Virus genome (UHGV): UHGV-0311374
From: a virus
Length of the DNA stretch: 12,033 nucleotides
Reading direction: 5' to 3' (one strand)
Shown here: positions 395 to 5,110 of the stretch, piece by piece
Layout: each line of letters starts with the position of its first letter
Position numbering within the stretch: the first letter of the stretch is position 1
Program-made: the position numbers and the translations under genes
Notes under the pieces: generated by a model
Told to the model about the DNA's origin: nothing
Seen by the model: only the letters and a program-made list of their open reading frames with translations
Databases searched by the model: none

Positions 395-598
395 ATGTTA
401 AATCATACCACACACCCGCAAGGGCGGGACTCGCACAACCTGAATAAATACATCTGGCGTTTTATCGCCCTGAGCACCGCACAACCGCGCGTAATTCACA
501 TCGTGGCCACCAGCGAACAGGAAGCGCGTCAGCAATCTCCTGATGGCTGCGTGATGGTATTCGCCGCCCGTATTCGTCAGGGGTCACATCATGCGTAA
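395..598 (+). CDS. Icd-like small protein (host cell division inhibitor Icd family-like), 67 aa
   Basis: ATG at 395 preceded by GAGG about 7 nt upstream; product ends ...YIWRFIALSTAQPRVIHIVATSEQEARQQSPDGCVMVFAARIRQGSHHA, which matches my recollection of Icd-like proteins of P4-like and cryptic prophage elements. The longer 29..598 ORF is rejected because its 5' part overlaps the operator/promoter region and the opposite-strand regulator. Confidence 0.5.
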   Translation: MLNHTTHPQGRDSHNLNKYIWRFIALSTAQPRVIHIVATSEQEARQQSPDGCVMVFAARIRQGSHHA

Positions 599-884
599 AA
601 ACCGCTTGCAAAAAATTATCACGGGGCTGTATGCTTCCCCCGTCGCCCACATGGCGACCGGGTTTGACAGCCTGAATACTACAGCGGACAGCCGCTTACA
701 TTCCGATATGCGGTTTTTTTGTGTCCGTAAACCTACCCATACCCGCATTATGGCGGGGCGTAACGGGGGAGCCTTTGCGCTCGCTGGTTCCTGTAGTGCC
801 AGTCTGTCAACCCTGTTACGTCTCGCCACCATGTTTGACAGCGTAGTAGCGAGACTCCTTAATTTCACTACAGGAGCCTTTCAC

Positions 885-1055
885 ATGGCTGTATTCACAC
901 GCCCTTATTTTGTCTGGCGCTTTATGCAGTGCCACCACAGCAACATCGATGTATTCACCGTTACCGCTGCCACTGAGCGCGAAGCACGTGCACAGCTGCC
1001 GCACGCACATCTTATTTTTGTCGCCCGTATTCGTCAGGGGGTGTTCCATGCCTGA
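885..1055 (+). CDS. Icd-like small protein, paralog of 395..598, 56 aa
   Basis: ATG at 885 with AGGAG 8 nt upstream; product MAVFTRPYFVWRFMQCHHSNIDVFTVTAATEREARAQLPHAHLIFVARIRQGVFHA aligns along its length with the C-terminal region of the 395..598 product (WRF...EARxQ...FxARIRQGxxHA). Confidence 0.5.
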   Translation: MAVFTRPYFVWRFMQCHHSNIDVFTVTAATEREARAQLPHAHLIFVARIRQGVFHA

Positions 1056-1368
1056 CATGACCAATTACCAGTACCTGATTAATCCGCATTTTAACTGTGA
1101 GCATGATATTGCTAAAAAGGTTTATTCCGCTGCGGATGGGGCTACTGACAATATATCAATGGCTGTTTCGTCAATTGGTAGCCTGATGTGGTATGCGTCA
1201 GAAAATAAGGAATATGACGAAAAGGCCATGCGCATTGATATGGGTAATATCGGTTTGTTACTGGCAATGCTTGGACAGTTTAATATTTCGTTACGGTGCA
1301 CCATTGAAAATGCCACAGATGCATTAAATGCCATAAAGAAAGCGAATACTGATTCAAATCGGGGATAA
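1048..1368 (+). CDS. Hypothetical protein, 106 aa, AT-rich cargo gene
   Basis: ATG at 1048 overlaps the stop of the previous gene (ATGCCTGA), with a G-rich SD-like run upstream; markedly AT-richer than the flanking genes; no family recognised. Confidence 0.5.
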   Translation: MPDMTNYQYLINPHFNCEHDIAKKVYSAADGATDNISMAVSSIGSLMWYASENKEYDEKAMRIDMGNIGLLLAMLGQFNISLRCTIENATDALNAIKKANTDSNRG

Positions 1369-1374
1369 ATAATC

Positions 1375-1674
1375 ATGAGAACATATTTATCTGGCTTGAC
1401 TGCCAGCGGTTATGCACACCCAAAAATTATCCCAGGCGCTATTTATCTGGATAAGAACGGTAACAGAGTAACGGTAAAAGAACTGATGTTTGACCGTGTG
1501 TATTTTATTCGTGATGGCTATTCATTTCATAGTTCGCTGAACGTGGAGATCTTTATTAGCAGATTCAGGCGGGAAATCCCGCCTTCCAGAAATAACCATG
1601 TGCCATGTATGGATGTTGATAAAAAACTACAGGAACTGAAAAACATGATTGCCGCGTGGAGAGAGCAGAAATGA
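1375..1674 (+). CDS. Hypothetical small protein, 99 aa (possibly DUF4222-like)
   Basis: ATG at 1375 with GGGGA upstream; stop overlaps the primase start (ATGA at 1671-1674); motif YLDKNGNRVTVKELMFDRVYFIRDGY resembles what I recall of small DUF4222 proteins found next to satellite primases; AT-rich. Confidence 0.5.
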   Translation: MRTYLSGLTASGYAHPKIIPGAIYLDKNGNRVTVKELMFDRVYFIRDGYSFHSSLNVEIFISRFRREIPPSRNNHVPCMDVDKKLQELKNMIAAWREQK

Positions 1675-3794
1675 AAAAAGCGCCAAATTTAAAACACCAG
1701 CCACGTGACAAAATGACGGAAGTCATCATTTTTGCGGGTAGTGATGCGTGGGCACATGCGAAGCAGTGGCAGGAACAGGACGGGCGACTGGCTGGCGATA
1801 ACGTGCCTCCTGTCTGGCTTGGAGAGCAACAACTTGCCGAACTGGATAAGCTGCAAATTGTGCCGGAAGGCCGAAAATCAGTACGCATATTCAGGGCCGG
1901 ACATCTTGAGCCAGTAATGATCAAGGCGATTGGTCAGAAGCTGGCGGCGGCAGGCGTACAGGATGCAAATTTTTACCCTGATGGAATGCACGGTCAGGAG
2001 GTGGAGAACTGGCGCGAATATCTGGCCCGTGAGCGGCAGAATCTTTCTGATGGTCTGGTTATTGAGTTTCCGGTAAAGAAAAAAGATACCGGAAGTCATA
2101 GCGATGACGAATTAAAGCCACGCGTTGAAAGTCGCGCCGATGGTGTTTTCTGGGTAACGCCCAAAGTGGATAAGCAGTCAGGCGAAATTATCCGGCCTGA
2201 GACGTGGTTATGTTCTCCGCTTGAACTACTGGGAACGGGGACGATCGGTAAAGAGCATTACCGCGTGATGCGCTGGAAAAAAACCGCAAACCATGAAGTC
2301 ATCACAATGGCGATCCCGTGTGGTGGTATCGGCGACCGTGACGGCTGGCGGTTACTTAAAGATCACGGGCTGAACGTGACAACCAACGGCAAATACAGGG
2401 CAATCCTGGCGGACTGGATGCAGTTAAGCGGAAGCCATGAGGAATGGCAGTTAAGCACAACAACGGGCTGGCATTTTGGCGCGTACATCATGCCGGACGG
2501 TTCGATCATTGGTGATTCTGAAAAACCGATCCTGTTTACCGGAAAAAGCGCCGCGATTAACGGTTATTCCGTGGCGGGTACGGCGGAGGGCTGGCGCGAG
2601 AGTGTGGCGCGGCTGGCTGGCGGTAATGCCTCAATGATGCTGGGTGTGGCAACGTCACTGGCAGCGCCTTTAATTGGCCTTGTGGGTGCTGACGGCTTCG
2701 GGGTGCATCTTTTCGAACAGTCATCGGCAGGTAAGACCACCACGCAGAACATCGCATCAAGTTTATGGGGAGAGCCGGACGCGCAGCGGCTGACCTGGTA
2801 CGGCACGGCGTTAGGTATTGCCAATGAGGCCGAGGCCCATAATGACGGGCTTTTACCACTGGATGAGATAGGCCAGGCCGGAAATGCGCGGGAAGTGTCA
2901 ACGTCTGCTTATACGCTGTTTAACGGTTCAGGGAAATTGCAGGGGGCGAAGGATGGCGGCAACAGGGAGATCAAACACTGGCGAACGGTGGCAATCAGCA
3001 CCGGAGAAATGGACGTTGAGACATTCCTCAAAAGTGAGGGGATAAAAGTTAAGGCGGGGCAGCTTGTCCGACTGCTTAACGTTCCGATGGAAAAAGCCAC
3101 GAAATTTCACGAATACAGCAACGGTAAGGAACATGCTGACGCGTTAAAGGATGCCTGGACAGCAAATCACGGGGCGGCGGGTCGTGAGTGGGTTAAATGG
3201 CTGGCAGGCCACCAGCAGGAGGCAAAGGACACGGTAAGGGAATGCCGCGAACGGTGGCGCAACCTGATACCGGAGAGTTACGGCGAGCAGGTCCACCGCG
3301 TGGGTGAACGTTTCGCCATACTGGAGGCCGCGCTTGTGCTTTCCTGTCATGTAACTGGCTGGGTCGTGCAGGAATGCCGCGACGCGATACAGTATAACTT
3401 TAATGCCTGGGTGAAGGAGTTCGGCACGGGTAACAGGGAATTTAAACAGATGGTTGAACAGGCTGAGGCGTTTTTGTCGTCGTTTGGGTTTAGCCGCTAC
3501 CTTCCGTACCCCAATACAGATGAGCGTGATTTACCGATTAAAGAGCTTGCCGGATACAGAAAAGGGAGCATTCGCAACGAAGATGACGAGATGCGCTATT
3601 ACACGTTCCCGCACGTGTTTGAGAGTGAGATAGCGAAGGGATTTAATCCGGCGCATTTTGCGCGTGCCCTGGATGCTGCCGGAATGCTGGAGAAGGGAAG
3701 CGATCGCCGATACAAAAAAAAGGCGCTGGGCAAGATTGGGGGTAAGCAGCATGTTTTTTACGTGCTGATGTTCCAGCCTGATGATGAAGATTAA
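1671..3794 (+). CDS. Replication initiation protein, primase/helicase-like (P4 alpha / PICI Pri-Rep type), 707 aa
   Basis: Long ORF; ATG at 1671 preceded by GGAGAG (the track's 1656 start is an upstream GTG); Walker A-like motif SSAGKTT in FEQSSAGKTTTQNIASSLWG; sits immediately upstream of an iteron array, as expected for a satellite or plasmid-type initiator. Confidence 0.8.
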   Translation: MKKAPNLKHQPRDKMTEVIIFAGSDAWAHAKQWQEQDGRLAGDNVPPVWLGEQQLAELDKLQIVPEGRKSVRIFRAGHLEPVMIKAIGQKLAAAGVQDANFYPDGMHGQEVENWREYLARERQNLSDGLVIEFPVKKKDTGSHSDDELKPRVESRADGVFWVTPKVDKQSGEIIRPETWLCSPLELLGTGTIGKEHYRVMRWKKTANHEVITMAIPCGGIGDRDGWRLLKDHGLNVTTNGKYRAILADWMQLSGSHEEWQLSTTTGWHFGAYIMPDGSIIGDSEKPILFTGKSAAINGYSVAGTAEGWRESVARLAGGNASMMLGVATSLAAPLIGLVGADGFGVHLFEQSSAGKTTTQNIASSLWGEPDAQRLTWYGTALGIANEAEAHNDGLLPLDEIGQAGNAREVSTSAYTLFNGSGKLQGAKDGGNREIKHWRTVAISTGEMDVETFLKSEGIKVKAGQLVRLLNVPMEKATKFHEYSNGKEHADALKDAWTANHGAAGREWVKWLAGHQQEAKDTVRECRERWRNLIPESYGEQVHRVGERFAILEAALVLSCHVTGWVVQECRDAIQYNFNAWVKEFGTGNREFKQMVEQAEAFLSSFGFSRYLPYPNTDERDLPIKELAGYRKGSIRNEDDEMRYYTFPHVFESEIAKGFNPAHFARALDAAGMLEKGSDRRYKKKALGKIGGKQHVFYVLMFQPDDED

Positions 3795-4837: not shown

Positions 4838-5110
4838 ATGGTACATGACCGCATAGCGGAGGAACTCGAGGCAAAAGGCTTTTACCGGAGGGCGTCGGCG
4901 CGATGGGGTGAAGTCATGCTGCTGGTGGAGACAGACAAGGAACGGCATCAGGTTACGATGCGACGGCTGGAATGTTCCAGGAAGGCACAGAAGCCACCGG
5001 AGCCGCCGGATAACTTCGGAGACCTGAGAAAGGCAGTAGATCGCACTTATGCTGAAATGGGTATAGATGGTGTAAGCGATGAAATATGGCGTAATTACCC
5101 AGACAGCTAA
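4838..5110 (+). CDS. PerC-family-like transcriptional regulator, 90 aa
   Basis: ATG at 4838 with GAGGGGG upstream; N-terminus MVHDRIAEELEAKGFYRRASARWGEVM resembles the conserved N-terminal region of PerC-type activators as I recall it; followed by a terminator. Confidence 0.5.
   Translation: MVHDRIAEELEAKGFYRRASARWGEVMLLVETDKERHQVTMRRLECSRKAQKPPEPPDNFGDLRKAVDRTYAEMGIDGVSDEIWRNYPDS

Follow-up and report, generated by a model that had tools for sequence, protein, structure and literature searches.

A P1 immI-type C4 antisense RNA cassette, probably inserted behind a resident icd-like gene, in the early operon of a probable capsid-forming satellite

In phage P1, the antisense RNA C4 blocks the expression of icd and ant, and icd is in turn needed for the expression of ant (P1 GenBank annotation and PMC8198154, the sources of the P1 facts used here). 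C4 and c4-a1b1 have been described as RNA families (Weinberg et al. 2010, PMC2864571), and Icd is known from P1. In Salmonella Gifsy-1, translation of orf45 is needed for coupling to anrP, and the nucleotides of orf45 are conserved while its amino acids vary (PMC4825925). For those phage-inducible chromosomal islands that form capsids (cf-PICIs), induction has been described to proceed via alpA, with no mention of icd or of an antisense RNA (bioRxiv 10.1101/2022.09.08.507074). The subject of the present analysis is the virus genome UHGV-0311374, a stretch of 12,033 nucleotides (the window), in which two small Icd-like genes, icd1 and icd2, flank a spacer of 286 bp. This region is likely to consist of a resident icd1 followed by an inserted P1 immI-type C4 cassette at the head of a cf-PICI-type early operon, a reading carried by the family identities of the RNAs and proteins, complementarity at a ribosome-binding site (RBS), covariation of the pairing sites, the presence or absence of the cassette in relatives and the missing coding signature of the spacer. 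In the literature searched, there is no description of a C4–icd cassette in cf-PICI early operons, of variable cargo in place of Ant behind C4–icd, of arrays of one to three C4 RNAs, or of icd-bounded insertion and deletion.

The C4 antisense RNA and its target sites

The two genes and the elements between them are the following.

395–598, + strand: icd1, Icd-like protein of 67 aa (NF033153, 71.8 bits)
606–635, + strand: candidate cassette-internal promoter, TTGCAA at 606–611, 18-nt spacer, TATGCT at 630–635
629–678, + strand: c4-a1b1 element (Rfam RF03163, 46.8 bits; gathering score 46.7)
664–670, + strand: a1, TTGACAG, by alignment to the annotated a1 of P1
678–684, + strand: b1, ACTACAG, by alignment to the annotated b1 of P1
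713–719, + strand: run of seven T following a1b1
746–833, + strand: C4 antisense RNA (Rfam RF01695, 72.3 bits; gathering score 45; model positions 1–87 of 87)
about 752–830, + strand: mature C4, predicted by homology to the 77-nt C4 of P1
786–798, + strand: b' loop of C4, GGUUCCUGUAGUG
804–810, + strand: a' segment of C4, CUGUCAA
835–878, + strand: C4 target region in the icd2 leader
835–841, + strand: a2, TTGACAG, homologous to the annotated a2 of P1
866–878, + strand: b2, CACUACAGGAGCC (CACTACAGGAGCC), homologous to b2 of P1 and overlapping the Shine–Dalgarno (SD) motif of icd2, AGGAG at 872–876
885–1055, + strand: icd2, Icd-like protein of 56 aa (NF033153, 56.7 bits)

The spacer folds with a minimum free energy (MFE) of -110.5 kcal/mol, against -88.7 +/- 5.1 kcal/mol for shuffled sequences (z = -4.3), which bears out the structure attributed to it in a preliminary description of this DNA; what does not stand is its treatment as an anonymous spacer, as it is a C4 antisense RNA with a1/b1 and a2/b2 sites. 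The C4 region is predicted to adopt the family fold (MFE -45.4 kcal/mol), with a long, tRNA-like terminal stem and the 3' end GCCACCA. When positions 200–1400 were compared with a phage collection, likeness at the DNA level was found only over about 654–843, at 78–82% identity, the matching part being the c4 region in P1, D6, SJ46 and phage-plasmids akin to them. The P1 annotations of a1, b1, c4, a2, b2 and icd map site for site onto the window.

The pairing arms were also returned independently by a repeat finder, which reported complementary arms at 786–798 and 866–878 (12 of 13 positions), as well as at 661–674/800–813 and 804–815/830–841; a' at 804–810 pairs with a2 at 835–841. The calculated duplex energies are -23.4 kcal/mol for b':b2, -14.6 kcal/mol for b':b1, -17.8 kcal/mol for a':a1 and -8.9 kcal/mol for a':a2. 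The spacer being C4 with its a1/b1 and a2/b2 sites, icd2 is therefore read as the translationally repressed leader of a P1 immI-type cassette. No complementarity exists at the RBS of icd1, for which b' and a' give only -6.0 and -3.3 kcal/mol, respectively; control of icd1 by C4 was considered and rejected on this ground and because relatives that differ in b' type keep almost the same icd1 RBS.

The candidate internal promoter lies at the position homologous to the P1 promoter P1c4 (formerly P51b), where TTGnnn, a spacer of 17–18 nt and TATnnT are kept in every lineage; it was not reported by the promoter scan because it matches the consensus at only 8 of 12 positions, and it is presumably active, as a weak promoter. 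The isrK model matches 642–720 with 35 bits, below its gathering score of 50, and the beginning of this match at 642 would fit a transcription start there. Between b1 and C4, a conserved segment at 684–728 (GCGGACAGCCGC...GCGGUUUUUUUGUGUCCGU) is shared with P1. Two folds are open to it, one a small terminator-like hairpin with U7 behind it and the other an enclosing CGGACA/UGUCCG helix, and it could possibly act as an attenuator that decides whether transcription yields a short a1b1 RNA or continues into C4, comparable to the two isoforms of IsrK.

For a comparison among relatives, 64 IMG/VR loci were retrieved with an 18-nt C4 core pattern, and P1 was added; a 14-mer scan of genome contigs gave only chance matches in unrelated phyla. 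The C4 alignment resolves 14 specificity types, in which the three sites b1, b' and b2 vary in concert; this number includes P1-like phages, and at least eight b-site specificities in the sample are satellite-borne. Each b' pairs perfectly with its own b2 over 7–10 nt and with its own b1 over 7–8 nt, whereas perfect Watson–Crick pairing with the sites of any other type does not exceed 6 nt. The window type is defined by b' UCCUGUAGUG and b2 CACUACAGGA, and the P1 type by b' UCACUAAC and b2 GUUAGUGA; another type has CCAGAUG as its b'. Because the three sites covary, there is strong evidence that the pairing is functional, and the alignment indicates a diversification of specificity, a feature already known from P1 and P7. 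The 14 types amount to a clean natural series of compensatory mutations in b1, b' and b2 for the study of C4 specificity.

When a hidden Markov model (HMM) of Icd was run over the loci, the large P1-like contigs were found to have a single icd, downstream of C4, and 15 smaller, satellite-like loci to have an Icd-like gene on either side of C4, as do the window and the relative L001. Several relatives carry more than one C4 RNA, often with a match to the isrK model in front, and all serial copies are full-scoring.

L134, 10284–10951: two C4 RNAs
L141, 2766–3429: two C4 RNAs
L156, 3235–3898: two C4 RNAs
L162, 2801–3467: two C4 RNAs
L151, 845–1876: three C4 RNAs

Since relatives carry two or three C4 RNAs, the window appears to be the simplest form of a family of C4–icd cassette arrays. 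The specificity of the a sites differs between C4 copies (for example, GGCUAA and UGUCAA). In L151, the distances from copy to copy, 342 and 357 nt, are each divisible by 3, one open frame of 723 codons spans all three copies, and between C4 copies there is a truncated icd start of the P1 type (MVNANPC).

Reading frames and origin of the two icd genes

Both products were compared with the NCBIfam profile NF033153 (phage_ICD_like), the curated cut-off of which is 25 bits, and both lie far above it (E 3.6e-20 for the 71.8 bits of icd1, and E 1.8e-15 for the 56.7 bits of icd2); a profile search that might have found no Icd relationship thus found one for each gene. In a pairwise BLASTP alignment, 20 of 49 residues are identical (41%, E 1e-11), and a WRF...EAR...ARIRQG core is common to the two products, in agreement with their earlier designation as Icd-like paralogs. 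Over 46 aa, Icd2 and P1 Icd show 54% identity, and their start ATGs are at homologous positions; the identity of the icd1 product to P1 Icd is 36%. A Pfam search returned no family for either. The AlphaFold2 model of Icd2 has a beta-beta-alpha-beta topology (predicted local distance difference test score, pLDDT, 80.3), for which a Foldseek search of the PDB gave nothing below E 0.36 and no significant neighbour, so that no target of Icd2 can be deduced from a fold match. PHROGs labels the Icd-like families at 395–598 and 885–1055 (phrog_6196 and phrog_1743) as 'transcriptional repressor'. This label is probably misleading. It may go back to the time before 1990, when c4 was annotated as a protein repressor, and a 'c4: CDS' feature is still found in GenBank X15639.

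Each of the short genes forms, as was pointed out before, the 3' end of a longer open reading frame (ORF) in the six-frame list, namely 29–598 (189 aa, TTG start) and 591–1055 (154 aa). The SD/ATG pairs that had been proposed for the short genes are present, with GAGG at 386–389 preceding ATG 395 and AGGAG at 872–876 preceding ATG 885 as read from the sequence, and the short starts are the best supported. Within the long ORFs, the match to NF033153 is confined to the C-terminal 48 or so residues. The DNA upstream of 395 holds a promoter, operators and a 5'-untranslated-region (5'-UTR) hairpin, and is highly variable, with indels in relatives. Variable sites were counted by codon position across 16 distinct satellite sequences.

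icd1 domain: 20/17/36 variable sites at codon positions 1/2/3; 50% of sites vary
icd2: 16/15/28 variable sites at codon positions 1/2/3; 35% of sites vary
spacer, in the frame of the 154-aa ORF: 15/18/12 variable sites at codon positions 1/2/3; 16% of sites vary

Within the spacer, variation clusters in the b1, b' and b2 blocks. As there is no third-position excess and the variation sits in the pairing blocks, the spacer evolves as RNA and not as protein. Automatic annotation by PGAP is mixed in this respect: icd1 is called at 67 aa in the O157 element and at 65 aa in L001; icd2 of L001 is called at 154 aa, with 56-aa forms also present in NCBI; and the single Icd-like gene of the E. coli E110019 element is called at 116 aa, with an upstream extension over the 5' UTR.

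These data also bear on a competing account that is judged unlikely, in which the 154-aa ORF is translated by re-initiation at ATG 591 after the icd1 stop, so that Icd2 carries an N-terminal extension. The spacer would in this case serve as mRNA and RNA precursor at once in transcripts that start at the main promoter, and Icd2 would have a route that escapes C4 control. In its favour, ATG 591 overlaps the icd1 stop (ATGCGTAA), and the same overlap begins the next annotated gene in the C4-less O157 element; of 16 satellite variants, a small and closely related set, 15 have an uninterrupted frame from ATG 591 to icd2, and in L151 the frame spans the three C4 copies; PGAP annotates the 154-aa form; and orf45 of Gifsy-1 is translated across a region that gives the processed stable RNA STnc1160 (PMC4825925). 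Against it stand the counts of 15/18/12, which show no third-position bias in this frame, the location of the variation in base-pairing blocks, the disruption of the long frame by a 1-nt deletion in L181, the in-frame stop that most P1-type loci have just ahead of icd, the coverage by the Icd HMM of only the last 48 or so residues, the 56-aa forms annotated in NCBI, and the fact that transcripts from the candidate internal promoter would exclude ATG 591. On whether the long ORFs are the translated products, a point raised in the preliminary description, the missing coding signature of the spacer speaks for the short form of icd2 and the open frame for the long one. Given the overlap at ATG 591, the open frame and the Gifsy-1 precedent, ribosomes may cross C4 on main-promoter transcripts.

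With regard to the origin of the arrangement, icd1 and icd2 are linked by DNA repeats of 13 and 24 nt, the longer of which are as follows.

560–583, + strand: left 24-nt direct repeat at the icd1 3' end, coding for F-A-A-R-I-R-Q-G, 92% identical to 1017–1040
1017–1040, + strand: right 24-nt direct repeat at the icd2 3' end

Their start-to-start spacing is 457 nt, and the corresponding 457-bp unit comprises the candidate promoter, a1b1, C4, a2b2 and icd2. Compared with window positions 395–1368, the element of E. coli E110019 (97.4% identical; L188, 4272–4935) lacks exactly the DNA between the repeats, with icd1 joined directly to a homologue of orf106, the gene that follows icd2 in the window. 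The O157:H7 element has icd1 only, and its homology to the window stops right after the icd1 stop. Among database proteins are chimeras of an icd1 N-terminus and an icd2 body, along with other combinations. The repeats, the exact absence and the chimeras argue that the unit is gained or lost by recombination between icd genes, and the E110019 type, 97% identical, offers a natural cassette-less control as one half of a near-isogenic pair.

It had been proposed that the gene is duplicated in tandem. The shared WRF...EAR...ARIRQG core and the 13- and 24-nt repeats that link both genes would suit a simple doubling in tandem of a gene for a cell-division inhibitor, retained because of dosage or because there are two targets, in which the spacer, though structured, has no functional part. 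Yet such an origin is considered very improbable, as the spacer is a full-length, high-scoring C4 with co-varying targets and is better conserved than the genes (16% variable sites vs 35–50%), icd2 is closer to P1 Icd (54% identity) than to icd1 (41%), and C4 and icd2 move together as a cassette. Because icd2 is nearer to P1 Icd and the 457-bp cassette is either present or absent, acquisition of a cassette rather than local duplication is favoured. Nor is the arrangement unusual, as had been supposed, since the spacer with Icd-like flanks occurs in 142 of 5426 complete E. coli genomes (about 2.6%; 112 at >=80% coverage), where it is mostly annotated as 'Icd-like protein (x2)'; in E. coli ZH063, the spacer is 99.7% identical. 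An icd1-like sequence alone is found in 1418 genomes.

Satellite context and proposed control

The neighbouring features are given below.

16–204, - strand: divergent gene of the YlcI/YnfO family, 62 aa (NCBIfam NF041551, 59.5 bits; PGAP agrees for the homologue)
245–299, no strand assigned: three operator-like 11-bp palindromes, GTGTT(C/T)AACAC (repeat finder)
257–262 and 280–285: sigma-70-like promoter, TTGACG, 17-nt spacer, TAAATT (promoter scan)
321–358, + strand (to 374 with the following motif): 5'-UTR hairpin of icd1, then UCUAACCA(C/A)CAACG
1048–1368, + strand: orf106, variable cargo gene, 106 aa (phrog_15327); its ATG overlaps the icd2 stop (ATGCCTGA)
1375–1674, + strand: DUF4222 protein (Pfam, PHROG)
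1656–3794, + strand: DUF927 primase (Pfam, PHROG)

Judged by its gene content, the early (replication) operon that begins with this region most probably belongs to a PICI-type satellite of the capsid-forming kind, in line with the earlier placement at the head of a satellite operon. The genes downstream are the cf-PICI set of DUF4222, DUF927 primase, SSB, PerC, capsid, prohead protease, portal, connector, HNH, TerS and TerL. The window is 96–97% identical to cf-PICI-type elements of E. coli O157:H7 over 88% of its length. A cf-PICI is a satellite-sized element that, besides its own head and packaging genes, has a PICI-type int/alpA/primase module and is devoid of tail genes. In relatives of 96–97% identity, an integrase and an HTH regulator are seen upstream, outside the window, and the element stops right after TerL and one further ORF; the window itself comprises 12 kb. 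A PerC-family transcriptional activator (4838–5110, 152 bits) lies between SSB and capsid, as in the O157 cf-PICI, and is a candidate for the late-gene activator of the satellite.

The palindromes flank and overlap the early promoter, bracketing its -35 element, its spacer and its start. From its position beside these operator-like repeats, the YlcI/YnfO-family protein is a candidate repressor of the early promoter, and the gene and palindromes together look like an exchangeable repressor/operator immunity module. In relatives, the sequence of the palindrome differs from element to element, again in three copies (for example, GTGTAAGACAC and GTGGCTGACAC). The 5'-UTR hairpin is kept in all satellite-type relatives with compensatory changes in the stem, and an Rfam search gave no match for 321–374. 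Its loop, CACUGUAGG, can pair with b' of the window through two G-U pairs (-15.5 kcal/mol). The hairpin as a third C4 target was nevertheless rejected as a general rule, as the same hairpin occurs beside unrelated b' loops, the loop shows no covariation with b', and other hairpin variants mismatch their own b'. In the window, the loop of this hairpin (ACUGUAGGAGC) is identical over 11 nt to b2 plus SD of the L141 cassette type.

The overlap of its ATG with the icd2 stop puts orf106 in the place that ant1 has in P1, and P1-like phages have an antirepressor gene there. Its product has no similarity to P1 Ant1 and no match in Pfam or NCBIfam. In relatives, the slot after icd2 holds at least seven unrelated small ORFs (L130, L134, L136, L162, L180, L151); the coupled gene differs between otherwise similar cassettes, and the slot resembles an accessory or counter-defence hotspot.

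A mode of action can be proposed on the model of P1. Firing of the operator-controlled main promoter would lead to expression of icd1, which lies upstream of the cassette and has no C4 target. C4 would be cut from the operon transcript, a step performed by RNase P in P1, and its b' loop and a' segment would pair with b2 and a2, thereby occluding the icd2 SD. Without translation of icd2, the coupled orf106 would remain untranslated, and polarity, as in P1, would reduce transcription into the DUF4222 and primase genes. The a1/b1 decoy sites on the same transcript would compete for C4, possibly in the form of a short RNA like IsrK that stops at 713–719, the T7 run. As control of cf-PICIs has so far been described via alpA, an antisense gate in front of the cargo and replication genes is a candidate for an extra layer of control.

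Several points weigh against the picture of a resident icd1 followed by a P1-type C4 cassette. C4 processing, polarity and activity of the internal promoter are extrapolated from P1, and the role given to the Icd proteins is presumptive; the predicted fold offers no clue to the function of Icd-like proteins beyond P1 Icd. Comparison of orf106 with Ant1 revealed no Ant homologue after icd2. Ribosomes arriving from icd1 via ATG 591 could bypass or disturb C4 control. Moreover, the c4-a1b1 match is only 0.1 bit over the gathering score; the call is backed by the alignment to a1/b1 of P1 and by b1 co-varying with b'.

An alternative view of the output, rather unlikely but compatible with the same anatomy, is that C4/icd2 constitutes a type I toxin–antitoxin or abortive-infection module, with Icd2 as a growth-arresting effector silenced by C4. 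An infecting phage would perturb the RNA balance and release Icd2, resulting in superinfection exclusion, not replication control. P1 Icd, named for this phenotype, is an inhibitor of cell division (Riedel et al. 1993, cited in PMC8198154), and the hypervariability of the cargo slot behind icd2 recalls that of accessory or defence regions. In addition, in a prophage locus of ECOR61 with an Icd-like gene and a primase, a phage accessory gene triggers growth arrest, which is abolished by removal of the Icd-like gene (bioRxiv 10.1101/2023.04.06.535777). On the other side, the ECOR61 locus is no more than a candidate for the same cassette, all six linked genes are needed there and the reconstituted effect is weak, and an icd1 free of antisense control would be odd for a toxin.

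A broader reading, also improbable, would join these elements into serial, exchangeable C4–icd locks with an RNA immunity code, a dual-function ORF and an extended Icd effector of the ECOR61 type. One to three such 'RNA lock' cassettes per cf-PICI would each gate a different cargo and then the replication genes; the b-site types would act as a code by which co-resident satellites and P1-like phage-plasmids are immune to, or incompatible with, one another; the ORF from the icd1 stop to icd2 would be both coding and antisense precursor, its translation deciding on C4 folding; and the growth arrest reported for ECOR61 would be the work of the extended Icd.

Recognition of the C4 cassette is useful for both annotation and satellite biology. 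In L001, the RefSeq/PGAP call of a 154-aa icd2 overlies an unannotated C4 RNA and its targets. If the 'N-terminal extension' in ECOR61 is C4 RNA, transposon hits there could have broken an RNA and not a protein domain.

Comparison with known systems

With the cf-PICI EcCIEDL933 (bioRxiv 10.1101/2022.09.08.507074), the window shares its probable element type and its gene order. The O157 cf-PICI has the order int, HTH regulator, YlcI/YnfO, icd1, small ORFs, DUF4222, DUF927 primase, SSB and PerC, followed by capsid, protease, portal, connectors, HNH, TerS and TerL. It differs from the window in that icd1 is succeeded by three small hypothetical genes, with no C4, icd2 or orf106.

In the P4 satellite, the replication genes of the element itself are silenced by the small CI RNA, which is processed from the operon transcript and pairs with complementary sites (seqA/seqC) up- and downstream of itself. 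The window is similar in being a satellite with an RNA from its own operon that would pair with sites on both sides, and the P4 parallel has also been discussed in PMC4825925. In contrast, CI causes transcription to end prematurely on an untranslated leader that has no Icd ORF, the window element is of the cf-PICI and not the P4-like type, and an Rfam scan of the window found no P4 CI-type family.

The isrK-orf45-anrP region of Salmonella Gifsy-1 shares an IsrK-like a1b1 RNA upstream, sub-threshold in the window and fully matched in relatives, as well as translational coupling to a downstream effector (PMC4825925). From the order isrK then C4 in relatives, we infer that STnc1160 is a C4 homologue, in which case an ORF overlies the C4 region in both systems. 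The differences are that the upstream small RNA of Gifsy-1 activates translation of orf45/anrP, that orf45 is not Icd-like whereas the window has a bona fide Icd-like ORF with a b2-masked RBS after the RNA, and that the isrK score of the window, 35 bits, is below the gathering score of 50.

The immI regions of P1 and P7 are set apart from the window in several respects. Homology to P1 begins only at about 632, and the repeats further upstream are GTGTT(C/T)AACAC instead of C1 operators. The cassette of the window is placed inside a satellite replication operon, behind icd1 and before DUF4222 and primase; in place of an Ant homologue, it is followed by an unrelated 106-aa protein in a variable slot; Icd2 has 56 aa and lacks the C-terminal tail of P1 Icd; b' is UCCUGUAGUG, compared with UCACUAAC in P1; and satellite relatives have arrays of two or three C4 RNAs. 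In common with P1 and P7, the window has an RNA of the Rfam C4 family at about 80% DNA identity, the site order a1, b1, C4, a2, b2, a b2 site over the RBS of an Icd-like ORF, a promoter-like element at the P1c4/P51b position and an icd stop that overlaps the start of the next gene (ant1 in P1), with specificity residing in the b sites, as in the heteroimmunity of P1 and P7.

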